IMG/VR virus record: IMGVR_UViG_2706794665_000014
DNA: 9,711 nucleotides
DNA from: a virus
Lineage: Duplodnaviria > Heunggongvirae > Uroviricota > Caudoviricetes
Reading direction: 5' to 3' (one strand)
Within the stretch, counting starts at the first letter, position 1. Every line of letters begins with the position of its first letter. The translations under genes and the position numbers were made by a program. The notes below the pieces were generated by a model that worked only from the letters and a program-made list of their open reading frames with translations, ran no database searches and had not been told where the DNA came from. Positions 1 through 9,711 of the stretch are shown piece by piece.

Positions 1-45
1 GACAAAGTCATCGGGCATTATCTGAACATAAAACACTATCAATAA
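1..45 (+). CDS. insB: IS1 transposase InsB, last 14 codons (5'-partial)
   Basis: In-frame translation from base 1 gives DKVIGHYLNIKHYQ followed by TAA at 43-45. Confidence 0.8.
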   Translation, partial: DKVIGHYLNIKHYQ

Positions 46-60
46 GTTGGAGTCATTACC
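1..60 (+). mobile_element. IS1 insertion sequence, 3'-terminal 60 bp (end of insB plus right terminal inverted repeat); the rest of the element lies upstream of the window
   Basis: Bases 1-60 match the canonical IS1 right end as I recall it: insB C-terminus DKVIGHYLNIKHYQ with TAA at 43-45, then the terminal repeat ending GTTGGAGTCATTACC at 60. The reverse complement of 38-60 (GGTAATGACTCCAACTTATTGAT) is an imperfect copy of the left repeat at 9622-9644. Confidence 0.88.
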
Positions 61-62
61 AA

Positions 63-224
63 ACGGTTGAAATGTATGCCGCTACTTACGGGTCCTGTAA
101 TCCTCTGAATAAACCAGAGGGAAAAGATGATTTCGACAAAATTTACCGCTTCTTGGAGGACCGCTATATCAAAAGCTTAGAGGACGCAGGGATCAAATCC
201 CCAGTGAAGTCACCATTGTCCTGA
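63..224 (+). pseudogene. Orphan open frame starting at the IS1 junction: possible 3' remnant of a gene disrupted by IS1 (or a 50-codon ORF from ATG 72)
   Basis: Frame is open for 53 codons from base 63 to TGA 222-224 (TVEMYAATYGSCNPLNKPEGKDDFDKIYRFLEDRYIKSLEDAGIKSPVKSPLS). No Shine-Dalgarno before ATG 72. The opposite strand is full of stops here. Not listed in the ORF track. Confidence 0.3.
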
Positions 225-558
225 GAACTTGCAGAACGTCATGATCATAACTTCCATCCAAACCGCGACGGCGAATTGCTTCTCGTATTACCGGAAGCAG
301 TTCGCTGGAAATCTCGGTGCATATTTCACCTGATAATACGCTTGGCTCAAGTGAGAATATTGGTGAACTTACGGTCTTGGTCTCGACAGTTTCAGAGTCA
401 GTGCCAACATTATAAAGCTCAACGAAAGCGGTCTTGATTTTCCGGGCCAGATCTTTTGCTGGCTCGCTTGCAATATCTTTCCCGATTTCTCGCAGCACAG
501 AATGCAATGTATGAGCTGCTGTTTTCTGTACATCAGACGGTAAATCTTTAAATTCCAT
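193..558 (-). CDS. Hypothetical prophage early-leftward protein, about 121 aa
   Basis: ORF 193-570 on minus strand. Preferred start is the internal ATG at 558 (MEFKDLPSD...), preceded by GAGG about 6 nt upstream; the ATG at 570 overlaps the upstream gene's stop (TGATG). No family recognised. Confidence 0.55.
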   Translation of the reverse strand: MEFKDLPSDVQKTAAHTLHSVLREIGKDIASEPAKDLARKIKTAFVELYNVGTDSETVETKTVSSPIFSLEPSVLSGEICTEISSELLPVIREAIRRRGLDGSYDHDVLQVLRTMVTSLGI

Positions 559-569
559 CGTCAGCCTCA

Positions 570-722
570 TCAGTCAGTGTTTCTGGCTAACCAGCAACGC
601 GCGCCAGATTCGGTTTTAAACGTTTTGCTTTTGGTATACGTCATGGCGGTAAACGTTCCATCCTGGTTAGGGAACACGCCGCACACCAGAGATTCGTTGT
701 TGCCAAGATCGATAGTATCCAT
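570..722 (-). CDS. Hypothetical small prophage protein, about 50 aa
   Basis: Minus-strand ORF; ATG at 722 is preceded by AGGGGAAATGAGG with 5-nt spacing. The in-frame extension to 776 has no RBS. Stop overlaps the start of the downstream gene. Confidence 0.45.
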   Translation of the reverse strand: MDTIDLGNNESLVCGVFPNQDGTFTAMTYTKSKTFKTESGARCWLARNTD

Positions 723-903
723 GCTGACCTCATTTCCCCTTAACGCCGGGGTGGCGGAACAAAAAACCTGCTGCATAGTTAAAGATTGAACCCTGCCGTC
801 ATGTTCTTACGCCTCGGGCTGGCTACTTAACCCCTGACCACTGTCTGGTAACTCGAAGTATTGCCCTGCATTCTGTGGGGCGGGGTGGGTTGACGCCTGA
901 AAC

Positions 904-946
904 AATAGCATCATTATTTTTTTTTGATGTAAATAGCATCGCTATT
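904..946. promoter_or_regulatory. Leftward operator-like pair: two copies of the palindrome AATAG-N5-CTATT (O_L-like)
   Basis: 904-918 AATAGCATCATTATT (imperfect) and 932-946 AATAGCATCGCTATT (perfect inverted repeat), 28 bp centre to centre. Same motif as the sites in the repressor/cro intergenic region. Confidence 0.4.
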
Positions 947-961
947 GTTTTTTGTTGGGGC

Positions 962-986
962 AAGAAAAAACCACCCTAAGGTGGTT
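962..986 (-). terminator. Rho-independent terminator at the end of the repressor-antitoxin-toxin operon
   Basis: Stem AACCACC (969-975) / GGTGGTT (980-986) with 4-nt loop. On the minus strand the hairpin is followed by TTTTTCTTG (complement of 961-968). It sits 17 bp past the toxin stop codon (1003-1005). Confidence 0.55.
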
Positions 987-1002
987 CTGTCGGCGGGAAT
1001 AA

Positions 1003-1293
1003 TTAACTGTTTTTGCCTGGATACTGTCTTCGAGAATGCACAATATTTACTACTTCTATGCTTGATGCTGTTACTCGGTAAAGGATGATGTAGTTAGGAT
1101 GAGTTACAATTTCACGAAGACCAAGAACTCGCTCGCTTGGAGGATACAGGTAAGGATGCTCTGTGAGCGGCAAAACGGATGTTTCAATTCGAATTTTCAT
1201 TCTGCGTGCTGCCGCGGGATTTTCTTTAGCTATGTAGGCTACGATCTGGCGCAAATCATCACGAGCAGATGGTAGCCATAAAACGGGTAACAT
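1003..1293 (-). CDS. Type II toxin, ParE/RelE superfamily (96 aa)
   Basis: Size and sequence pattern typical of ParE/RelE toxins (MLPVLWLPSARDDLRQIVAYIAKENPAAARR...GLREIVTHPNYIILYRV...IVHSRRQYP). Start overlaps the upstream antitoxin stop by 1 nt (TAATG); GAGGTG RBS lies inside the antitoxin 3' end. Confidence 0.8.
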   Translation of the reverse strand: MLPVLWLPSARDDLRQIVAYIAKENPAAARRMKIRIETSVLPLTEHPYLYPPSERVLGLREIVTHPNYIILYRVTASSIEVVNIVHSRRQYPGKNS

Positions 1294-1487
1294 TATTCAC
1301 CTCTGTGAGTTGCAGCAGCAATTTGGGCAATAATTTGTTCCATTTCCGCCATTACCTCATCATGCGGAATCGCCGGGCGGGGATCCGCGAGGCTTGCTGC
1401 TACTTTGGCCCGCAGCCATTCGTTGTAACTATTTTCTTGCTCAACTGTCTCAAATTCTGAAACCATTGGGGAAAGGACTGTACTCAT
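1293..1487 (-). CDS. Putative antitoxin (addiction-module antidote-like, 64 aa) paired with the ParE/RelE toxin
   Basis: Small acidic ORF immediately upstream of and overlapping the toxin gene. GAGGAG RBS 9 nt before ATG 1487. Sequence (…NEWLRAKVAASLADPRPAIPHDEVMAEMEQII…) resembles antidote proteins that partner RelE/ParE toxins. Confidence 0.65.
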   Translation of the reverse strand: MSTVLSPMVSEFETVEQENSYNEWLRAKVAASLADPRPAIPHDEVMAEMEQIIAQIAAATHRGE

Positions 1488-1506
1488 TTTACATATCTCC
1501 TCTGAT

Positions 1507-2007
1507 TTAGGCGCGACGGCCTTTTTGTGCAGCTAACCACCGCGCAACCGTACGATCCATTGATTCTTTTTTATCTTTCATCTCCTGAAGCATGTGTTCT
1601 TGATCTTCTTTCGGAAAAGCTCTGAACGTATGGATTAAATCTCGTTCCATCGGCTCTACGGCAAACGGTAGTTCATCCTCTGTTTGTTCTGTGTCTGCTG
1701 GTAATGCGACTATGTTATCTTGCTGTGGTTCTCGACAATACATCCTTGCAATTTGCAGCAAATCTACCATGTCTGGCCTGATTGACTCAGGGGGAACTTT
1801 CAGTAAGCCAGCAAACTTTAGAACAGCCTCAAGGTTTAGTGGGGTTTGACCATTTAGGTAGTGACTTACCGCCCCTTGTGTTGAAAACCCCATAATTTCC
1901 GCCGCACGTTCCTGAGTCAATCCCAACTGAGATTTCTTTGCCATCCAGATTTCTTTCAGTCTTCTGGCGGCGTTGAGGTCGGTGTCTGACAATGATTTTC
2001 TTTTCAT
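1507..2007 (-). CDS. Prophage repressor, XRE-family helix-turn-helix (cI/RacR-like, about 166 aa), no recognisable LexA-like peptidase domain
   Basis: N-terminal HTH (LGLTQERAAEIMGFSTQGAVSHYLNGQTP). Divergent from the cro-like gene. Preferred start ATG 2007 (MKRKSL...); the ORF-track start at 2037 is GTG with no RBS. The C-terminal half is acidic with no Ser/Lys peptidase motif seen. Confidence 0.8.
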   Translation of the reverse strand: MKRKSLSDTDLNAARRLKEIWMAKKSQLGLTQERAAEIMGFSTQGAVSHYLNGQTPLNLEAVLKFAGLLKVPPESIRPDMVDLLQIARMYCREPQQDNIVALPADTEQTEDELPFAVEPMERDLIHTFRAFPKEDQEHMLQEMKDKKESMDRTVARWLAAQKGRRA

Positions 2008-2014
2008 ACATCCA

Positions 2015-2084
2015 ATTCTAATAAGATTGCTAATCACTTTGAAATAGTATCACTATTTACTTTTAAAAATAACAGTGCTATTAA
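2015..2084. promoter_or_regulatory. Divergent promoter/operator region (O_R-like) between the repressor and cro-like genes
   Basis: Three copies of the AATAG-N5-CTATT palindrome at 2020-2034 (weak), 2043-2057 (perfect, AATAGTATCACTATT) and 2068-2082, spaced 23-25 bp. Candidate rightward promoter: -35 TTTACT 2056-2061, -10 TATTAA 2079-2084. Candidate leftward promoter on minus strand: -35 TTCAAA (complement of 2038-2043), -10 TAGAAT (complement of 2015-2020), which places the transcript start at about the repressor ATG. Confidence 0.45.
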
Positions 2085-2118
2085 TTATGCATTGGTAACA
2101 CATCACATAGGGCGGATT

Positions 2119-2382
2119 ATGAATCTTGGAGAATATTTGCATCATTTTCATATAACCCAGAGTTCATTTGCTGAGATTGTTGGCGCATCCCAAGGGATGG
2201 TCAGCCACGTTATAACGGGGCGTGCAAAACTTACAGGAGAAAAAATATTACGTTGGTGTGAAGCAACGGGATGGGTGGTGACCCCACATGAGATTGACAG
2301 TAAAACCTACCCCAACCCAACTGACGGCTTGCCTGCTGAGTTTCAGGCTAACACACAACCATCGGCGGGGGTTGATTCATGA
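2119..2382 (+). CDS. Cro-like / YdaS-family HTH regulator (87 aa from ATG 2119)
   Basis: Divergent from the repressor; HTH-like segment QSSFAEIVGASQGMVSHVITGRAKLTGEKILRW. An alternative upstream start at 2092 is in frame. Stop overlaps the next gene's start (ATGA at 2379-2382). Confidence 0.7.
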   Translation: MNLGEYLHHFHITQSSFAEIVGASQGMVSHVITGRAKLTGEKILRWCEATGWVVTPHEIDSKTYPNPTDGLPAEFQANTQPSAGVDS

Positions 2383-2804
2383 AAATCAAGCATGAACACA
2401 TCCGCATGGCGATGAAAGCCTGGGCGCATCCGGACGGTGAAAAAGTTCCGGCAGCTGAAATAACCAGGGTTTATTTCGAACTGGGAATGACGTTTCCGGT
2501 TCTGCATAACGACAGCAAGCACAACACGCTTTATCTCAACACCCAAAAGATTTTCCGTTGGCTGGATAAAGACACCCCTGACGCTGTTGAAAAAATTCAG
2601 GCGTTGTTACCTGCGATCGAAAGGGCAATGCCACCTCCGCTGGTGGCTCGAATGCGCAGCCACAGTTCAGCTTATTTTCGGGAACTGGTGGAGACGCATG
2701 AACGACTGGTGAGAGACGCTGATGATTTTGTCGCAGTGGCAATCGCCGGTTTCAATCAGATGAACCGTGGTGGCCCGGCAGGAAATGCTGTGGCAGTACA
2801 TTGA
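2379..2804 (+). CDS. YdaT-like protein (CII-like regulator family), 141 aa
   Basis: Translationally coupled to the cro-like gene. Size and position match the ydaS-ydaT arrangement of Rac-type prophages. Assigned from gene order and length; weak sequence recollection. Confidence 0.6.
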   Translation: MKIKHEHIRMAMKAWAHPDGEKVPAAEITRVYFELGMTFPVLHNDSKHNTLYLNTQKIFRWLDKDTPDAVEKIQALLPAIERAMPPPLVARMRSHSSAYFRELVETHERLVRDADDFVAVAIAGFNQMNRGGPAGNAVAVH

Positions 2805-2875
2805 CTGACAATAGCCATATCGAATCGCTCCCGGCAACTCGTGAGTAAAAAGATTCGGTATCAGAAGAGGTGAGT

Positions 2876-3953
2876 ATGGCTAACGCCTGGCTCAGATTAT
2901 GGCATGACATGCCAAATGACCCTAAGTGGCGAACAATTGCCAGGGTGTCAGGGCAGCCAATTGCAACAGTGATGGCAGTGTATATCCACCTCCTGGTGAG
3001 CGCGTCACGAAATGTCACGCGAGGTCACATTGATGTCACGACAGAAGNNNNNNNNNNNNNNNNNNNNNNNNNNNNNNNNNNNNNNNNNNNNNNNNNNNNN
3101 NNNNNNNNNNNNNNNNNNNNNNNNNNNNNNNNNNNNNNNNNNNNNNNNNNNNNNNNNNNNNNNNNNNNNNNNNNNNNNNNNNNNNNNNNNNNNNNNNNNN
3201 NNNNNNNNNNNNNNNNNNNNNNNNNNNNNNNNNNNNNNNNNNNNNNNNNNNNNNNNNNNNNNNNNNNNNNNNNNNNNNNNNNNNNNNNNNNNNNNNNNNN
3301 NNNNNNTGTCACGACGAGTCACGACAGATACAGATAAAGATACAGATAAAGAAGATCAAAACACTATGGTCCATGGCGTAAAAAACGCCACGAACCAGGC
3401 AGGGGATGTTCAGACCGTCAATCCTGGTCAGCCAGCAGGCTCGACACCGGAAGCCGATTCAGCGTATGCGCTGAAAGCCGATTCGGGCGCTGTGCAGCAG
3501 GTGATGACCGCAAGGCCGGAGCAATCACTCCAACTGCAGCAGCCTGAAGCCGATTCCGCCATTCAGCGGGAAGCCGATCGGGTAGCCCCGGAAAACACCG
3601 GGCAGCCTGTGGGACGAGTGGATTATCCGGATGTGTTCGAACAGGTCTGGCGGGAATACCCGTTGCGTGCCGGGGCAAACCCGAAGAAATCCGCATTCAG
3701 TGCCTGGAAGGCCAGATTGCGCGAGGGGGTGCCACCAGAGACCATGCTGGATGGTGTGAGGCGTTACGCGAGATACCTGGCGGCGACCGGGAAAGCGGGA
3801 ACGGAATTTGTTCAGCGAGCGACGACGTTTTTTGGGCCGGACCGGAATTTTGAAAACCCCTGGTTGCTCCCGGTAAGCGGCACGAACAACCAGCGTTGTG
3901 TGAATCATATTTCTGAACCGGATACCGAAATTCCGCCGGGATTCAGGGGGTGA
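2876..3953 (+). CDS. Phage replication initiator / replisome organiser (YdaU-DUF1376-like N-terminus), origin iterons inside the coding sequence; frame not continuous across the masked gap (possible frameshift/pseudogene, or two ORFs)
   Basis: ATG 2876 after AGAAGAGG RBS. N-terminus MANAWLRLWHDMPNDPKWRTIARVSG... is typical of phage replication proteins. The C-terminal portion (frame of 3012-3953) ends in a TGA that overlaps the dnaC-like ATG. The frame before the gap (codons at 2876+3n) ends at TAA 3335-3337 after the gap, while the frame reaching 3953 is different. Confidence 0.5.
3004..3350. repeat. Replication-origin-like iteron array (TGTCACG-type repeats at about 10-bp spacing) followed by an AT-rich tandem repeat; the middle is masked
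   Basis: GTCACG at 3004-3009, TGTCACG 3013-3019, GGTCACA 3023-3029, TGTCACG 3034-3040; after the gap TGTCACG 3307-3313 and AGTCACG 3317-3323; then GATACAGATAAA twice (3327-3338, 3339-3350). Confidence 0.5.
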
Positions 3954-4696
3954 TGTGGCATGANNNNNNNNNNNNNNNNNNNNNNNNNNNNNNNNNNNNN
4001 NNNNNNNNNNNNNNNNNNNNNNNNNNNNNNNNNNNNNNNNNNNNNNNNNNNNNNNNNNNNNNNNNNNNNNNNNNNNNNNNNNNNNNNNNNNNNNNNNNNN
4101 NNNNNNNNNNNNNNNNNNNNNNNNNNNNNNNNNNNNNNNNNNNNNNNNNNNNNNNNNNNNNNNNNNNNNNNNNNNNNNNNNNNNNNNNNNNNNNNNNNNN
4201 NNNNNNNNNNNNNNNNNNNNNNNNNNNNNNNNNNNNNCTGATGACCGGGTGCACGAATTTTGTGTTCAGCGGTAAAACCGGCACCGGGAAAAATCACCTT
4301 GCAGCGGCGATGGGTAACCGGCTGATGGCGAAGGGGCGCAGCGTGATTATCGTCACCGAGTCTGATGTCATGAGCGTGTTGCATGACAGCTACGACAACG
4401 GCAAATCCGGTGAAAAATTTTTACAGGAGCTTTGCGGGGTTGATTTGCTGGTCCTGGATGAAATAGGCATTCAGCGGGAGACGAAAAACGAGCAGGTGGT
4501 ATTGCACCAGATAATTGATCGCCGGACAGCATCACTGTGCAGTGTCGGGATGTTAACAAACCTGAATCATGCCGCAATGAGCACGCTTCTTGGTGAGAGG
4601 ATTATGGACCGCATGACCATGAACGGTTGTCGGTGGGTGACGTTTAACTGGGATAGCTGGCGTTCAAATGTCAGCTTTCCGGGAGTTGTGAAGTAA
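3953..4696 (+). CDS. DnaC-like replicative helicase loader (IstB-like AAA+ ATPase; YdaV-like)
   Basis: Walker A FSGKTGTGKNHLAAA and Walker B LLVLDEIG. ATG 3953 overlaps the stop of the upstream replication gene (TGATG). The N-terminal ~90 codons are masked (3964-4237). Confidence 0.85.
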   Translation: MWHXXXXXXXXXXXXXXXXXXXXXXXXXXXXXXXXXXXXXXXXXXXXXXXXXXXXXXXXXXXXXXXXXXXXXXXXXXXXXXXXXXXXXXXXXXXXLMTGCTNFVFSGKTGTGKNHLAAAMGNRLMAKGRSVIIVTESDVMSVLHDSYDNGKSGEKFLQELCGVDLLVLDEIGIQRETKNEQVVLHQIIDRRTASLCSVGMLTNLNHAAMSTLLGERIMDRMTMNGCRWVTFNWDSWRSNVSFPGVVK

Positions 4697-4717
4697 TTTT
4701 TGTTGGAGGATGTTTTA

Positions 4718-5443
4718 ATGGAAACTGTATTTGACGCACTGAAAGCACTGAAAAGAGCCTCTTCACATGTGGTGGCGTCCCGCCTTGGAATCAGCCGTGA
4801 AGATGCGGTCAACGAACTGTGGAAACTGAAGCGCCGTGGTGAAGCGGATAACAAGGGTTCGATGTGGTGGCTGATTCAGGCTGGTGAAAGTGAACCAGTG
4901 TCACCGGTACCGAAAGTGACAGCGCAAATGCTGACTGAGGCGATTGAACAACATGGCCCACAAACGGCGGATGAGCTGGCACTGATGTTCGGGATTACCT
5001 CCCGCCGGGCGAATTCATCGCTGGCCATGGCAATCAGCAAAGGGCGTCTGATTCGCGTGAATCAGGGCGGTAAATTTCGGTACTGCATACCGGGCGCTGA
5101 TTTACCGGCAGAGCCGAAAGCCGCATCCATAGCGGAAACGGATGGTAAAGTCTTTCCTCAGCCAGCAGGTGTTGCGTTACCGGTACAGGAAGCTGCAACA
5201 CAGGAAGAAATTAAAACAGAAACTGTGGCGGACATTGTGCAGTCGTTGCCATCGTTCACCGAAACGCAAGCGGATGACCTGGTTTTACCATCGCTGCATA
5301 TGGCAAACCGCGAACTGCGTCGGGCGAAAAGTCATGTCCAGAAGTGGGAGCGTGTCTGCGCCGCGTTGCGGGAGCTGAACAAGCACCGGGATATTGTTCG
5401 ACAGATTGTCGATTCCTCCGGTCGTATTGTGTCGGAAAAGTGA
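4718..5443 (+). CDS. Hypothetical prophage protein (242 aa), possible tandem winged-helix DNA-binding regions and C-terminal coiled coil
   Basis: ATG 4718 with GGAGGA RBS 7 nt upstream. Two segments resembling winged-helix motifs ([20 protein letters not shown]; [24 protein letters not shown]). No family recognised with certainty. Confidence 0.65.
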
Positions 5444-5458
5444 TTGCCGGGGGCGCTT

Positions 5459-5911
5459 ATGGCAAANNNNNNNNNNNNNNNNNNNNNNNNNNNNNNNNNN
5501 NNNNNNNNNNNNNNNNNNNNNNNNNNNNNNNNNNNNNNNNNNNNNNNNNNNNNNNNNNNNNNNNNNNNNNNNNNNNNNNNNNNNNNNNNNNNNNNNNNNN
5601 NNNNNNNNNNNNNNNNNNNNNNNNNNNNNNNNNNNNNNNNNNNNNNNNNNNNNNNNNNNNNNNNNNNNNNNNNNNNNNNNNNNNNNNNNNNNNNNNNNNN
5701 NNNNNNNNNNNNNNNNNNNNNNNNNNNNNNNNNNNNNNNNNNNAAGAAACCATCTGTGGTTGATCCGGACCTTATCTGGTCATTACCGGACGGAGAAATA
5801 CGCCGCTACGACAGACATCAGAACATAATCTGTCGCGAGTGCCGGAAGAGTGAAGTTATGCAGCGTGTACCGGCTTTCTATCAGGGTGATTTTCAGGAGG
5901 CGGTACTGTGA
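5459..5911 (+). CDS. Hypothetical protein, central part masked
   Basis: ATG 5459 follows the previous stop by 15 bp. After the gap the same frame continues through ...CRECRKSEVMQRVPAFYQGDFQEAVL to TGA 5909-5911. Other frames are also open across the N block, so continuity is unproven. Confidence 0.4.
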   Translation: MAXXXXXXXXXXXXXXXXXXXXXXXXXXXXXXXXXXXXXXXXXXXXXXXXXXXXXXXXXXXXXXXXXXXXXXXXXXXXXXXXXXXXXXXXXXXXXKKPSVVDPDLIWSLPDGEIRRYDRHQNIICRECRKSEVMQRVPAFYQGDFQEAVL

Positions 5912-5968
5912 GTGAAATTAGCTATCAGGCTTCAATTACCGCTGGCATTCGCATCAAAGGAGAGGAGC

Positions 5969-6325
5969 ATGGAAATAAAACCAGAAGATGAGTTAAGCAA
6001 TATTGTTTTATTTCCGGTAAAAGAGGATAACCCTCGTAATCAGGTTAATTTTCTTTATGAGCCATCGGAAAGACCATATTGCCATCACGCTTCTGTCCGG
6101 GTTGACGAAAAAGAGCGTCAGGTCCGCTGTAAAATTTGCGGTGCAGTTGTGGAGCCATTTGACTGGATGCTCTCTGTGGCGAAAAGAGAAACCAGACTGG
6201 CAGATGATGTAAGGCTCTTGCGCCAGGAGGAGCGGGAAAGGCGAAAAAATATAGAAAAGCTAATCCAGATTGAGCGTAATGCGAAAGCGCGGATACGCAG
6301 GGTGACAAAATATAGCCCCGAATAA
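5969..6325 (+). CDS. Hypothetical protein (118 aa), zinc-ribbon-like Cys/His cluster plus basic coiled-coil C-terminus
   Basis: ATG 5969 after strong RBS AAGGAGAGGAG. Motif YCHHASVRVDEKERQVRCKICGAVV, then an Arg/Glu-rich helix (LLRQEERERRKNIEKLIQIERNAKARIRR). Confidence 0.6.
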   Translation: MEIKPEDELSNIVLFPVKEDNPRNQVNFLYEPSERPYCHHASVRVDEKERQVRCKICGAVVEPFDWMLSVAKRETRLADDVRLLRQEERERRKNIEKLIQIERNAKARIRRVTKYSPE

Positions 6326-6539
6326 TCAAGGTTATTTCTGGAAGTCAAGTCGTGAGTGATGAGGACTAACAAATACGGTGAACTCGATAAAGAGATTCAG
6401 GACGAACTGGAGGCCAGGAATGATTGACAAATCACCAAGTGAGTTCAGCTACAAAGATTTATTGTCATAACGGGTTATGAGATCGACTTGGTGCGTGATA
6501 TTCTTCGGGCCAGTTTGCTATGCGCCACCATGAGATGTT

Positions 6540-8372
6540 ATGGCCCGCATGTTTGATACATTAGGATTTTACATTATGAATGTGCAACATTTTGATTTTT
6601 TTACAGATAATGAGTTTTCTAATCTGGAAAGATATCAAACTTGTAAAGCCATGGCCAAAGGTTATGCGGGCAATTACAAAACCGGGCAGTCAAGGTTGAT
6701 GCATGCCCGCTCATACTGCTTCAGCATCGTAGCTGCATATTGGGATACCCTTGCAAAAAAGCAAAAAAGCAGCATTAAAATGAGGGCAGTACCGCACACT
6801 GTTTACATAGAAGACATTCCATGTGATGCACGCGAGCTCGCTGAACGAACAGGTGAGCTTATTGCTCAATTTCCGGCGGAGGACGCTGGATATCTGATTG
6901 GGTCAATTTATACGGTAATGCTGCCATCCGCTTACCGTTCGGAATTGGGGGCTTACTATACCCCCCCACCTTTGGTAGCGCGTCTCTTGGACCTGGCTGA
7001 AAAGTCTGGTGTTGATTTTTCTCATGCATCGGTTATTGATCCTGCGTGTGGTGGCGGTGCATTTTTGGCACCAGTAGCCATTCGAATGTTAAAAAAAGAC
7101 AAGGGGTCTTCCCCTGAATGGATGTTGAGGAGAATCAGTCGTCGTTTAAAGGGGATAGAGATCGATCCATTTGCGGCTTGGATGAGTTTGGTATTGCTCG
7201 AATCTGTACTAATGCCACTATGTGTAAAGGTAAAACGTAGATTGCCTGAAGATACAATTATTGTTGCTGATGCGCTTCAGCAAGATAAATTTTCTGGTTA
7301 TGATCTTGTGGTAGGGAATCCGCCTTACGGACGTGTCACTCTCGATATTAAAACGAGAGAAAAATATTCTCGTTCGTTATTTGGTCATGCAAATCTATAT
7401 GGATTGTTCACCGACTTAGCTGTTCGCATGGTTAAAGAGAAAACAGGAGTTATTGCATTTCTTACGCCAACTTCTTTTCTTGGTGGGCAGTATTTCACCG
7501 CGCTGCGAACCCTTTTGACCGAAAAAACTACTCCGTATGCCCTTGATTTCGTCACTGACAGGGATGGGGTCTTTGACGATGTTCTCCAGGAAACAATGTT
7601 GACAGCATTCAAGGCGGGAGAACATAAAGTTCGGGCCCAGGTATCCTCACTTGTCCCTAAGGGGTTGAACAAAGCAAAAATTGAGAAAATAGGTAATGTT
7701 GATATAGAAAAAGGTGGAGCAACGTGGCTTTTGCCACGCGTTAAAGATGATGCCTGTTTTCTTAATGTATTAAAACAGATGTCTACGCGTTTAGCTGATC
7801 TGGGATACTCAGTCTCTACAGGTCAGTTAGTCTGGAATCGATTTAAGTCGCAGTTGCGTACGACGAAAGGAAAAAATAGCTACCCATTAGTCTGGGCGGA
7901 ATCAATAACTTCAGCTGGTTTTCGTTTTAGTGCAGACAGAAAAAATCATGTTCCCTATATCGATATAACCCCACAACAGGGTTTCCTTGTGACAAAATCT
8001 GAATGTGTGCTTGTTCAGCGGACAACATCGAAGGAACAGGACAGAAGGATTTTAGCGGCAATTTTACCTCAGGGATTTATAGATGAAACTGGTGGCGTAG
8101 TAGTTGAAAACCATATTAATATTGTATATTCAAACGGATTGTTCTCTGCGGTTCGCCCTGATGTTATTGATATGCTACTTAATTCGCATGTTGTCGATCG
8201 GGCGTTCAGGTGTATAAGCGGAAGTGTTGCTGTTTCGGCCTATGAATTGAATTCAATCCCGTTGCCTTCTCTGGAGCAGGTGATGGAGATTCAATCGTTA
8301 ATTGATGCTGGCGTCCACAGACGGATTATTGAGAGAACTATCGCTGGTTTCTATGGAGTGATGATTGCATGA
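6540..8372 (+). CDS. N6-adenine DNA methyltransferase, gamma class (Eco57I/TaqI-like), 610 aa
   Basis: Motif X GAYYTPPPLVARLL (about 6948-6989), motif I VIDPACGGGAFL (about 7032-7067), motif IV VVGNPPYG (NPPY at 7317-7328), in the order X-I-IV. Alternative start ATG 6576 with AGGA RBS. AT-richer than the upstream phage genes. Confidence 0.85.
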   Translation: MARMFDTLGFYIMNVQHFDFFTDNEFSNLERYQTCKAMAKGYAGNYKTGQSRLMHARSYCFSIVAAYWDTLAKKQKSSIKMRAVPHTVYIEDIPCDARELAERTGELIAQFPAEDAGYLIGSIYTVMLPSAYRSELGAYYTPPPLVARLLDLAEKSGVDFSHASVIDPACGGGAFLAPVAIRMLKKDKGSSPEWMLRRISRRLKGIEIDPFAAWMSLVLLESVLMPLCVKVKRRLPEDTIIVADALQQDKFSGYDLVVGNPPYGRVTLDIKTREKYSRSLFGHANLYGLFTDLAVRMVKEKTGVIAFLTPTSFLGGQYFTALRTLLTEKTTPYALDFVTDRDGVFDDVLQETMLTAFKAGEHKVRAQVSSLVPKGLNKAKIEKIGNVDIEKGGATWLLPRVKDDACFLNVLKQMSTRLADLGYSVSTGQLVWNRFKSQLRTTKGKNSYPLVWAESITSAGFRFSADRKNHVPYIDITPQQGFLVTKSECVLVQRTTSKEQDRRILAAILPQGFIDETGGVVVENHINIVYSNGLFSAVRPDVIDMLLNSHVVDRAFRCISGSVAVSAYELNSIPLPSLEQVMEIQSLIDAGVHRRIIERTIAGFYGVMIA

Positions 8373-9469
8373 ATCTGCCTGTTGTTCCCCCATTGAATGT
8401 TATCCGGGAAAGATTACAATTAATTTTCCCTGAAGGGACTGAGAATCGTGGATATTTAATTCGGGAAATAGCTGCAAAAACAATTTTTGTCATGTTTTAT
8501 GCTGGTGCGGTTGAGGGGCTGGGGCGATGGATAAGGCCCAGCCAGGTTGTAAGTATGGGAGATTCGCAGGCTGCTCTTACTGATGATGCGTCCAGAGAAA
8601 GCTGGGTAAAGATGACTTTCTCTAAACAAAAGATAAGGCCTGCTGATGCATGGTATGCGGAAAATACGCGTGAGCCAATACGTGATGAAACTATAAAAAA
8701 TGGCCTAATACCTTGCAATGCAATTGTTGAGCGTAAAGGTATACCCACCACATCCTCTCGTCCTCGTTACAGTTTGAATCGCTCTTTTGCAGCACTCTTT
8801 GATGCCGGGCTTGAAGGAGATTCGCTGCTGAGTGCAATAAGTTCCTGGCAAGAAAATCATTTGAACAAAGCCGCTCTTGCTAGNNNNNNNNNNNNNNNNN
8901 NNNNNNNNNNNNNNNNNNNNNNNNNNNNNNNNNNNNNNNNNNNNNNNNNNNNNNNNNNNNNNNNNNNNNNNNNNNNNNNNNNNNNNNNNNNNNNNNNNNN
9001 NNNNNNNNNNNNNNNNNNNNNNNNNNNNNNNNNNNNNNNNNNNNNNNNNNNNNNNNNNNNNNNNNNNNNNNNNNNNNNNNNNNNNNNNNNNNNNNNNNNN
9101 NNNNNNNNNNNNNNNNNNNNNNNNNNNNNNNNNNNNNNNNNNNNNNNNNNNNNNCCAGATATTATTTTGATTGATTTGGGAGAGGACCGAACGGGTTCGG
9201 ACATGCTTGTAGTTTTCACTGAAGTAGTTGCGACAGATGGGCCTATAAACAGGGAACGAAAAGTTACTCTCACTCATTTGGCTATTGACGCTGGGTTCAG
9301 CGAGAAAAATCTTGCATTCCTTACGGCATTTATGGACAGAAGTGCTCTGCCTTTTAAAAAGGCAATACCAGAATTGGCGTGGGGATCTTATGCATGGTTT
9401 GCTTCTGAACCGGAGCACTTAATTGATCTTCGGGATGGTTATCCGGTAAAGATCAGCCAGAGAAAATGA
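8369..9469 (+). CDS. Methyltransferase-coupled partner protein, 366 aa; putative restriction endonuclease (possibly BsuBI/PstI-like), family not verified
   Basis: ATG 8369 overlaps the MTase stop (ATGA) with GGAG about 10 nt upstream, so operon coupling is clear. No catalytic motif recognised by eye; about 90 central codons are masked (8884-9154). Function inferred from context. Confidence 0.6.
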   Translation: MNLPVVPPLNVIRERLQLIFPEGTENRGYLIREIAAKTIFVMFYAGAVEGLGRWIRPSQVVSMGDSQAALTDDASRESWVKMTFSKQKIRPADAWYAENTREPIRDETIKNGLIPCNAIVERKGIPTTSSRPRYSLNRSFAALFDAGLEGDSLLSAISSWQENHLNKAALAXXXXXXXXXXXXXXXXXXXXXXXXXXXXXXXXXXXXXXXXXXXXXXXXXXXXXXXXXXXXXXXXXXXXXXXXXXXXXXXXXXXXXXXXXXXPDIILIDLGEDRTGSDMLVVFTEVVATDGPINRERKVTLTHLAIDAGFSEKNLAFLTAFMDRSALPFKKAIPELAWGSYAWFASEPEHLIDLRDGYPVKISQRK

Positions 9470-9621
9470 CCAAAGTTTGATATCCGCCACGCCCTGAAGG
9501 ATGGGGGTTTTACGGTGCACTGGATAAAAAATCGGTTTCATAGATTTGCCCACCGTGGTATACGCCTGCGATAAAAACTTTATTGTCATCAACGGCAAAA
9601 GCAATAATTGTTCTGTGGCGG

Positions 9622-9711
9622 GGTGATGCTGCCAACTTACTGATTTAGTGTATGATGGTGTTTTTGAGGTGCTCCAGTGGCTTCTGTTTCTATCAGCTGT
9701 CCCTCCTGTTC
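9622..9711 (+). mobile_element. IS1 insertion sequence, 5'-terminal 90 bp (left inverted repeat and start of insA); the element continues past the window end
   Basis: GGTGATGCTGCCAACTTACTGAT at 9622-9644 is the IS1 terminal repeat, followed by the canonical IS1 leader and the insA start. Same orientation as the IS1 end at 1-60. Confidence 0.88.
9677..9711 (+). CDS. insA: IS1 InsA, N-terminal codons (3'-partial)
   Basis: GTG 9677 then GCT TCT GTT TCT ATC AGC TGT CCC TCC TGT TC, giving (M)ASVSISCPSC, the InsA N-terminus. Confidence 0.7.
   Translation, partial: MASVSISCPSC

Follow-up and report, generated by a model that had tools for sequence, protein, structure and literature searches.

Proximal pairs of IS1 transpose as composites in laboratory evolution when IS1 is active, and Tn9 is the classical case of such a unit (PMC12065110). 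Counts published for Shigella sonnei put the median number of IS per chromosome at 286, with IS1 accounting for 42-59%, and IS-mediated decay of Shigella genomes, including IS1 adjacent deletions and IS-IS recombination, has been described (PMC7373316). From these counts, a rough Poisson estimate puts the expected number of direct IS1 pairs within 10 kb at well over ten per genome, and the architecture of an IS1 pair is as such statistically not remarkable in S. sonnei. For the prophage CP-933P, a paaR2-paaA2-parE2 operon and a ydaS-ydaT region have been described (PMC8630535, PMC9986795). Addiction by the paaA2-parE2 pair of CP-933P has been reported, together with the suggestion that the pair restricts rearrangements in the immunity region (PMC8630535).

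The window, which is the whole stretch of 9,711 nucleotides that was analysed here, starts with an IS1 3' end and stops with an IS1 5' end on the same strand (Table 1). This had been described in the initial annotation as a composite-transposon-like architecture. However, it is very probable that two separate IS1 events bound the early region of a decayed lambdoid prophage at the Qin site of S. sonnei, and that this region was not moved there as a unit.

Outside four masked runs of N (positions 3048-3306, 3964-4237, 5467-5743 and 8884-9154), the window matches chromosomal loci of S. sonnei at 99.9-100% identity, ten closed chromosomes among them (L002, L005, L006, L007 and L015-L020). The segment is ~100% identical to S. 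sonnei chromosomes such as that of FORC_011 (CP010829.1). Open reading frames called across the N runs are artefacts, since these runs are masked. Complete Shigella genomes were sampled at 20 places obtained from exact-protein look-ups, in which a second copy per genome is possibly collapsed. Extension of the outer flanks in the closed chromosomes, as proposed in the initial annotation, revealed that both window ends belong to complete IS1 copies, designated IS1-L and IS1-R. Both are 768 bp in length, differ from each other by 0-1 nt, lie in direct orientation and are separated by a segment of 9,561 bp. They possess terminal inverted repeats, and both frames, insA and insB', are present along with the A6C frameshift motif and TTAAAAAAC; a chance resemblance is excluded by the contiguous 100% identity that extends into IS1. 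In some genomes, a third IS1 of the same orientation, IS1-a, was identified ~1.2 kb beyond the left end.

Short-read contigs break at both junctions. One contig (L010) corresponds to window positions 66-9616, another (L021) is a 9,868-bp contig running from IS1 to IS1, and the longest carrying contig is 5-10 kb in 633 of the 792 assembly-collection blocks found with the 125-aa protein and in 1,864 of the 3,929 blocks found with the methyltransferase. Contig breakage probably explains where the window starts and stops. The further suggestion that the window is a short-read contig ending in repeats, whose IS1 ends are not necessarily adjacent to the segment, carries next to no probability, since it is refuted by the ten closed chromosomes, in which a complete IS1 is located at exactly these junctions.

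The segment sits at the Qin prophage site, with ynfE/ynfF on one side and ydfI on the other. BLAST comparison of four chromosomes (L002, L005, L006 and L007) to positions 1,624,000-1,672,000 of K-12 showed collinear flanks (rspR-ydfZ-ydfI and, at the opposite end, ynfE/ynfF-ynfG-ynfH-dmsD), between which ydfA, the dicF region and dicB-ydfD-ydfE follow in the order of Qin. With its early-left genes and Qin-collinear flanks, the locus belongs to a cryptic lambdoid prophage remnant at the Qin site, which has lost the genes for excision, lysis and particle formation that the related intact prophage L001 possesses. In agreement with the truncated prophage of the initial annotation, no open reading frame or Pfam match for integrase, lysis or structural genes was identified in the window or between the IS1 copies. 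The cargo listed there, namely a phage immunity region, a replication module, a toxin-antitoxin pair and a restriction-modification-like (R-M) pair, was likewise recovered by Pfam on window proteins or on identical loci. By Pfam and gene order, the HTH regulator, PaaA2 and ParE are encoded in one operon within the prophage immunity region. In L006, the methyltransferase lacks its first 144 residues and the endonuclease is retained apart from an S62G exchange.

Table 1. Features of the 9,711-nucleotide window.
Feature	Position	Strand	Basis
IS1-L 3' end (right inverted repeat)	1-60	+	ends ...ATCAATAAGTTGGAGTCATTACC / ...GGAGTCATTACC; continues into complete 768-bp IS1 in closed loci
Inner copy of 9-bp target-site duplication of IS1-L, AAACGGTTG	61-69	.	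same 9-mer directly outside IS1-L in L006, L002, L018, L019
3' remnant (50 codons) of 66-aa prophage ORF cut by IS1-L	72-224	+	intact ORF called in L008, L004; empty site reads through target
125-aa hypothetical early-left prophage gene	193-570	-	ORF; no Pfam match; exact protein in 792 assembly-collection blocks
DUF1391 (ydfA-like) gene	570-722	-	Pfam PF07151, 1.3e-28; 90% DNA identity to K-12 Qin ydfA region
paaR2-paaA2-parE2-type operon	1003-2007	-	Pfam and gene order as for prophage CP-933P (PMC8630535)
ParE toxin	1003-1293	-	Pfam ParE_toxin 1.8e-17
PaaA2 antitoxin	1293-1487	-	Pfam PaaA2 3e-23
HTH repressor of the operon	1507-2007	-	Pfam HTH_3 9e-9
cro/ydaS-like gene, divergent	2119-2382	+	weak HTH_3 match; gene calls in L007
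ydaT	2379-2804	+	Pfam YdaT_toxin 5e-9; gene calls in L007
Replication module	2876-4696	+	gene calls and Pfam IstB_IS21/Bac_DnaA on identical loci; partly masked by N runs; RefSeq names on relative L001
Replisome organizer (354 aa in L007)	2876-3953	+	as for replication module; partly N-masked
Iteron-like GTCACG array within replisome organizer gene	3004-3042		GTCACG clustering
DnaC-like loader	3960-4696	+	as for replication module; partly N-masked
DUF1627 gene	4718-5443	+	Pfam DUF1627 3.9e-93
DUF977 gene	5459-5911	+	Pfam on identical loci; partly N-masked
137-aa hypothetical gene	5912-6325	+	
N6-adenine methyltransferase (610 aa) of R-M pair	6540-8372	+	Pfam Eco57I 1.7e-13, N6_Mtase 2e-9; RefSeq names in L001
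BsuBI/PstI-family endonuclease of R-M pair	8369-9469	+	true length 360 aa, interrupted by an N run; on identical loci, Pfam BsuBI_PstI_RE_N and BsuBI_PstI_RE; RefSeq names in L001
3' fragment of RelE/ParE-family toxin gene (last 36 codons and stop) cut by IS1-R	9510-9621	-	alignment to intact 103-aa gene of E. coli FDAARGOS_943 ends exactly at 9621
IS1-R 5' end (left inverted repeat, insA start)	9622-9711	+	starts GGTGATGCTGCCAACTTACTGAT; complete 768-bp IS1 in all closed genomes

For IS1-L, the 9-mer AAACGGTTG that flanks the element on both sides is single-copy at the empty site, which was identified in L008 and L004 by the comparison to the same prophage without IS1 that the initial annotation had suggested. 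IS1-a is flanked by its own duplication, AACCGGAAA, and its empty site is also present in L008 and L004, so that both elements show the 8-9 bp duplication of a simple IS1 insertion. The same prophage continues outside IS1-L, where the missing part of the 66-aa ORF is located together with the dicF region, a Rha/Ash gene and dicB, ydfD and ydfE (L006, L002, L018 and L019). Four configurations of the outer-left flank, types A to D, were found, in which the outer 9-mer is AAACGGTTG in types A and B, AACCGGAAA in type C and CACGGGTCG in type D. In several strains (types C and D), IS1-L has recombined with IS1-a over 2,012 bp from start to start, which bears out the earlier statement that direct IS1 copies promote deletion. 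The outer-left variants are the result of ongoing or repeated IS1-mediated deletion.

At IS1-R, no target-site duplication was found in the closed loci, as is expected of a deletion junction, and from its sequence context IS1-R is to be regarded as one. The junction, which reads relE'...CTGTGGCGG, then IS1, then CATATAACA..., is identical in 10 of 10 closed loci. Past the relE' fragment, neither the ParD antitoxin gene nor any late prophage gene is left; a related E. coli prophage continues past this point with relE-parD, DUF968, rusA, Q, tRNAs and the lysis and structural genes. The CATATAACA side lies in the ydfJ-ydfI intergenic region, with its outer base 48 bp upstream of the ydfI start. 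In E. coli 720632 and G3/10, which still hold ydfJ' and Qin, independent IS1 insertions of the same orientation are located 2-6 bp away, each with its own duplication, and the ydfJ-ydfI region is a hotspot for IS1 insertion.

The relative age of both elements can be approached with contig L008, which matches L006 at 100% over the left flank and reads through the empty sites of IS1-L and IS1-a. It stops 5 bp from the IS1-R junction, as other short-read contigs stop 5 bp from IS1 junctions, and from this end position we infer that L008 carries IS1-R. IS1-L and IS1-R would be of different age, because L008 contains the empty site of IS1-L but ends at the IS1-R junction.

These junctions bear directly on the proposal that the segment is a Tn9-like composite transposon, whose outer IS1 ends have mobilised the 9.56-kb cargo as a unit in the past or do so regularly. 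The ten closed chromosomes contain the same IS on both sides of the cargo with functional outer ends, and the pair is complete, near-identical and direct, with intact terminal repeats and transposase frames, in line with the laboratory precedents and with Tn9 itself. However, the 8-9 bp duplication that the initial annotation sought at the outer ends of the pair is absent from all four outer-flank configurations, since CATATAACA on the right is faced by AAACGGTTG, AACCGGAAA or CACGGGTCG on the left, which never match. IS1-L has a private duplication with the same prophage beyond it, the segment is in place, as its collinearity with the Qin locus shows, and L008 is without IS1-L yet apparently with IS1-R. 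In addition, every IS1-flanked copy retrieved by the exact-protein look-ups belongs to one chromosomal locus, from ynfE/F to ydfI, none of 5,426 complete E. coli genomes contains either inner IS1 junction, and coverage of the segment by PLSDB plasmids does not exceed 27%. Among these sampled loci, genomes and plasmids, of which the Shigella sampling is limited, the IS1-segment-IS1 unit was not found in another context, and no sign of mobilisation or deletion of the segment was seen. A transposon of this kind is therefore very unlikely. Of the initial annotation, the direct IS1 pair around 9.56 kb stands, with both copies complete; the mobilised unit is not supported. Two unrelated insertions were to be recognised there by an independent duplication at each IS1 and by continuation of the same prophage outside, and this largely applies, as it was observed for IS1-L, whereas IS1-R is without a duplication. 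Future or rare mobilisation of the segment is possible in principle, with both IS1 intact and only 9.6 kb apart.

In the favoured sequence of two separate IS1 events, the surviving early region comprises the immunity switch, the toxin-antitoxin module, the replication genes and the R-M pair, and IS1-R marks a large deletion by which parD through Q, the lysis and structural genes and ydfJ were removed. The most likely route would be a simple IS1 insertion at the ydfJ-ydfI hotspot, from which an IS1-mediated adjacent deletion then extended into the prophage, although the reverse order may also apply; among the sampled genomes, no intermediate state was recovered in the S. sonnei lineage. IS1-L was very probably added later by ordinary transposition into the 66-aa prophage ORF, generating its own 9-bp duplication. 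The left flank was then trimmed differently in different strains, by recombination with the third IS1 and by a deletion out to ynfF. The IS1 pair thus arose as a by-product while IS1 expanded and the genome decayed.

It might be asked whether selection has kept the segment, with paaA2-parE2 and the R-M pair acting as addiction modules that kill cells deleting it. IS1-a and IS1-L have recombined in several strains, whereas IS1-L and IS1-R are both kept in every sampled genome, and the addictive character reported for the CP-933P pair would fit. However, the look-up queries came from proteins of the segment itself, so that genomes without the segment were unfindable and the apparent retention is an ascertainment bias. 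Furthermore, the loss of methyltransferase sequence in L006 with the endonuclease kept argues that the R-M pair either is inactive there or does not act as a strict addiction module. Retention by addiction is considered unlikely.

A further outcome of the direct IS1 pair would be homologous recombination between both copies, which could release a circle of ~10.3 kb (9,561 + 768 bp) that either replicates and stabilises itself as a plasmid or re-enters another IS1. λdv plasmids are autonomous circles with the immunity-replication region of λ. The segment has an equivalent set, in which genes for a repressor and a helicase loader are joined by cro-like, cII-like and O-like genes, the last with iteron-like repeats, so that the predicted circle would combine this λdv-like set and its DnaC-like loader with the ParE toxin-antitoxin module and the PstI-type R-M pair. 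Unlike for λdv, no circle, extra copy or plasmid form was observed here, and an origin function is suggested by the repeats only. Such a circle is extremely unlikely; if real, the remnant would be a latent mobile defence and addiction element rather than dead DNA. The locus would gain greater importance only if the segment excises and replicates, or if the addiction modules guard against deletion.

Compared to K-12 Qin, the locus shares the chromosomal surroundings, from ydfI/ydfJ to the rspB...ynfE side, and the order ydfA, dicF region, dicB, ydfD, ydfE at 83-92% identity. It differs from the dicA/dicC-relBE region of Qin in the immunity, replication and R-M genes, and has lost all late genes, the integrase end, rspAB, ynfA-D, speG and a portion of ynfE or ynfF. 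Here, the immunity region resembles that of CP-933P by gene order and Pfam families, a cro-like gene and ydaT being divergent from the genes of the HTH repressor, PaaA2 and ParE. With Tn9 and other IS1-flanked composites, the locus has in common two full-length direct IS1 with intact ends and transposase frames around non-IS DNA. It differs from them by the lack of a bracketing duplication, by a left duplication that is private, by a right end that is a deletion junction, by its restriction to one chromosomal locus and by a cargo of prophage DNA in place. An IS at both contig ends in an IS-rich genome is hence not equal to a composite transposon unless duplications and empty sites have been checked. 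With the IS-mediated decay of Shigella (PMC7373316), the locus shares an S. sonnei host with IS1 expansion, IS1 at the truncations (relE', ynfF' and the 66-aa ORF) and deletion variants that differ between strains. There is no essential difference, except that one locus is described here in detail. IS1-driven prophage erosion in Shigella is an already known process, of which this is a clear but ordinary example, in which insertion of IS1, adjacent deletion and IS1-IS1 recombination form a small natural series at one locus.

The segment between the two IS1 copies has resulted from IS1-driven decay of the Shigella sonnei genome and its prophage, a process already known in kind. An exact-protein look-up led to chromosomal loci 99.9-100% identical to the window, and S. 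sonnei FORC_011 (CP010829.1) is among the matching records. When aligned to E. coli K-12 (1,624,000-1,672,000), the segment was mapped to the chromosomal site of the Qin prophage. The ydfJ-ydfI spacer, followed by ydfI, ydfZ and rspR, lies to the right of the right-hand copy (IS1-R), and the left side runs to ynfE/ynfF, ynfG, ynfH and dmsD. The order ydfA, dicF region, dicB, ydfD, ydfE in K-12 Qin equals that in the S. sonnei loci, at 83-92% identity; dicF is located outside the window, beyond the left-hand copy (IS1-L).

The left end of the window terminates in ...ATCAATAAGTTGGAGTCATTACC and its right-hand IS1 part opens with GGTGATGCTGCCAACTTACTGAT, which are the two IS1 termini, both on the + strand. 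Since both belong to complete 768-bp IS1 elements in ten closed chromosomes, the two same-orientation IS1 ends described in the initial annotation were confirmed. In the closed chromosomes the copies differ by 0-1 nt and contain insA, insB' and the A6C frameshift motif.

IS1-L is bracketed by a perfect 9-bp duplication, AAACGGTTG, in CP060117.1 (L006) and the closed-chromosome loci L002, L018 and L019. It interrupts a 66-aa prophage ORF, and the prophage goes on outside it. The target is uninterrupted in the empty-site loci L008 and L004, and no exact match to the left junction was found in a contig collection with one genome per species, among which this strain is evidently not included. For IS1-R, no target duplication was identified in any genome examined. 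Its inner end truncates the gene of a 103-aa RelE/ParE-family toxin, of which the last 36 codons remain, and its outer end adjoins CATATAACA..., 48 bp upstream of the ydfI start. IS1-R is a deletion junction, at which parD, all late genes and ydfJ have been removed. IS1 has a hotspot in the ydfJ-ydfI spacer, with three independent insertions within 6 bp in S. sonnei and two unrelated E. coli. In the latter, strains 720632 and G3/10, an independent IS1 with its own duplication is present 2-6 bp from the IS1-R site in the same orientation, and ydfJ' and Qin are still attached to it. We infer that IS1-R may first have inserted at this spacer and then have deleted inward.

The initial annotation had proposed that the direct pair has a composite-transposon-like architecture, which could be mobilised as in Tn9, against which independent target-site duplications with prophage continuing outside would speak. 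This was found for the left copy, but not for the right one, where the missing duplication is explained by deletion. The two copies are intact and near each other, and with active IS1, closely spaced pairs of this element are able to move as composite transposons (PMC12065110). A common duplication bracketing the pair was never found among the closed loci compared, and all IS1-flanked copies recovered are at one chromosomal locus. Plasmids gave only partial matches to related prophage early regions, covering at most 27% of the segment, and several of these records are chromosome-sized. A mobile composite unit is therefore not supported. Both inner junctions are absent from 5,426 complete E. 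coli genomes, and the phage collection contained only mosaic matches to the window with at most 22% coverage. S. sonnei chromosomes have a median of 286 detected IS, with IS1 making up 42-59% (PMC7373316). By a rough Poisson estimate from these counts, well over ten direct IS1 pairs at most 10 kb apart are expected per genome; the architecture is unremarkable for S. sonnei.

A third IS1, IS1-a, with the duplication AACCGGAAA, was identified within a Rha/Ash-type gene; its start is 2,012 bp to the left of that of IS1-L. Four outer-left configurations occur. Type A (L006) retains both duplications intact, and in type B (L002, L018, L019) ynfF is found in place of the IS1-a outer flank. Type C (L005, L016) contains one hybrid IS1, flanked on the left as IS1-a is and on the right as IS1-L is, and in type D (L007 = L020, L015, L017) ynfF abuts an IS1 bearing the IS1-L right flank. 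These types are the products expected of direct-IS1 recombination and IS1-associated deletion. Because only 60 bp of IS1-L are present in the window, it is compatible with any of the four. Contig L008 is 100% identical to L006 across the left flank and reads through both empty sites, those of IS1-L and IS1-a; it ends 5 bp before the IS1-R junction, and at an IS3-family element in ydfE. Judged by the former contig end, IS1-R is probably older than IS1-L. Short-read contigs L009-L011, L023 and L024 likewise end 5 bp from IS1 junctions.

In the left flanks of two sets of loci (L005, L006, L016; L007, L002, L015), intQ, rspAB, ynfA-D, speG and part of ynfE were lost by deletions, one of which starts at the IS3-family element in ydfE, while another extends into ynfF. 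The loss of speG in Shigella has been cited as pathoadaptive (PMC7373316). An IS2 insertion at one ydfE position common to K-12 Qin and S. sonnei was first suspected, since the K-12 homology ends at the IS2E boundary. This was ruled out, since ydfE goes on for about 290 bp more in S. sonnei and meets there another member of the IS3 family, one with an end resembling that of IS600. Prophages integrated beside potC, not at the Qin site, in E. coli L003, L004 and L001 have early-left genes near-identical (96-99.6%) to those of the window, and the potC-adjacent L001 prophage also contains the R-M pair. Mosaicism of this kind between attachment sites is ordinary for lambdoid prophages.

Features of the window and of the loci compared with it
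Feature	Window	Other loci	Basis
IS1-L, terminal part	1-60		
Early-left genes similar to potC prophages	61-892		
Part covered by contig L010	66-9616		
DUF1391-parE spacer	570-1003		
GTCACG array	3004-3042 and masked stretch after	L007 7262-7308, 7532-7568	
Masked N runs	3048-3306, 3964-4237, 5467-5743, 8884-9154		
Part absent from CP060117.1	5084-6960		
Toxin gene remnant	9510-9621		
IS1-R, terminal part	9622-9711		
ydfJ-ydfI spacer IS1		L006 18298 onward (window orientation); L013 13433-14200; L014 5433-6200; K-12 about 1,630,961	
ParE_toxin			Pfam, window protein, 1.8e-17
PaaA2			Pfam, window protein, 3e-23
HTH_3 repressor, YdaT, DUF1391, DUF1627, N6_Mtase/Eco57I			Pfam, window proteins
Replisome organizer; DnaC-like protein (IstB_IS21/Bac_DnaA); DUF977; BsuBI/PstI endonuclease			Identical loci

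The limits of the window are probably assembly breaks at IS1. The segment genes are on 5-10 kb contigs in most assemblies, and L021 is a 9,868-bp contig reaching from IS1 to IS1. The DUF1391-parE spacer differs by 1 bp in length from that of L002, L005, L006 and L007, and short-read contig L010 aligns to it gap-free, so that the window is closest to an L010-type genome. In L010, ydaT contains an IS91-family insertion. The methyltransferase was found on 2-5 kb contigs in 1,925 of 3,929 blocks, about half of the assemblies; such contigs (L024, L022, L010) imply that a large sublineage has an additional repeat or IS within the segment. The four masked N runs have lengths of 259, 274, 277 and 271, compared to 246, 284, 247 and 253 of real sequence in L007, so that neither ORFs and their lengths nor reading frames can be relied on where they cross these runs. 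A 366-aa 'endonuclease' ORF of the window, which had no exact match among the proteins looked up, was rejected as such an artefact, the real protein having 360 aa. Inside the window, neither long direct or inverted repeats (seed 12) nor RNA families (Rfam, gathering thresholds) were detected.

The iteron-like GTCACG array is part of the gene for the replisome organizer. This motif occurs 15 times in the 20-kb locus; nine of these copies are inside about 310 bp, five of them spaced 10-11 bp, and judged by its sequence the array is probably the prophage replication origin. One S. sonnei chromosome, CP060117.1, has a 1,877-bp internal deletion, which takes the end of the DUF1627 gene, DUF977, a 137-aa gene and the first 144 methyltransferase residues and puts the activity of the R-M pair in question. 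It is possible that the segment is shielded from loss by its addiction modules, and the TA module of prophage CP-933P has been reported to be addictive (PMC8630535). However, the endonuclease was kept in CP060117.1, apart from S62G, beside the truncated methyltransferase, which speaks against a strict addiction role of the R-M pair in that strain. The genomes compared are only those that carry the segment, as the look-ups return no others.

Recombination between IS1-L and IS1-R would release a circle, which would also carry the TA module and the R-M pair; the segment was not seen as a circle, in a second copy or in plasmid form. The gene set of such a circle would resemble that of λdv, the autonomous circles of the λ immunity-replication region, including an O-like gene in which GTCACG repeats are densely arrayed. 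In the window, the repressor-PaaA2-ParE operon is divergent from a cro-like gene and ydaT, which equals the arrangement described for CP-933P (PMC8630535). The related prophage of E. coli FDAARGOS_943 has the R-M pair in common with the window. There, the pair is preceded by integrase, excisionase, exonuclease and dicB and followed by relE-parD, DUF968, rusA, Q, tRNAs, and lysis and structural genes, so that the window represents only the middle of an FDAARGOS_943-like phage.
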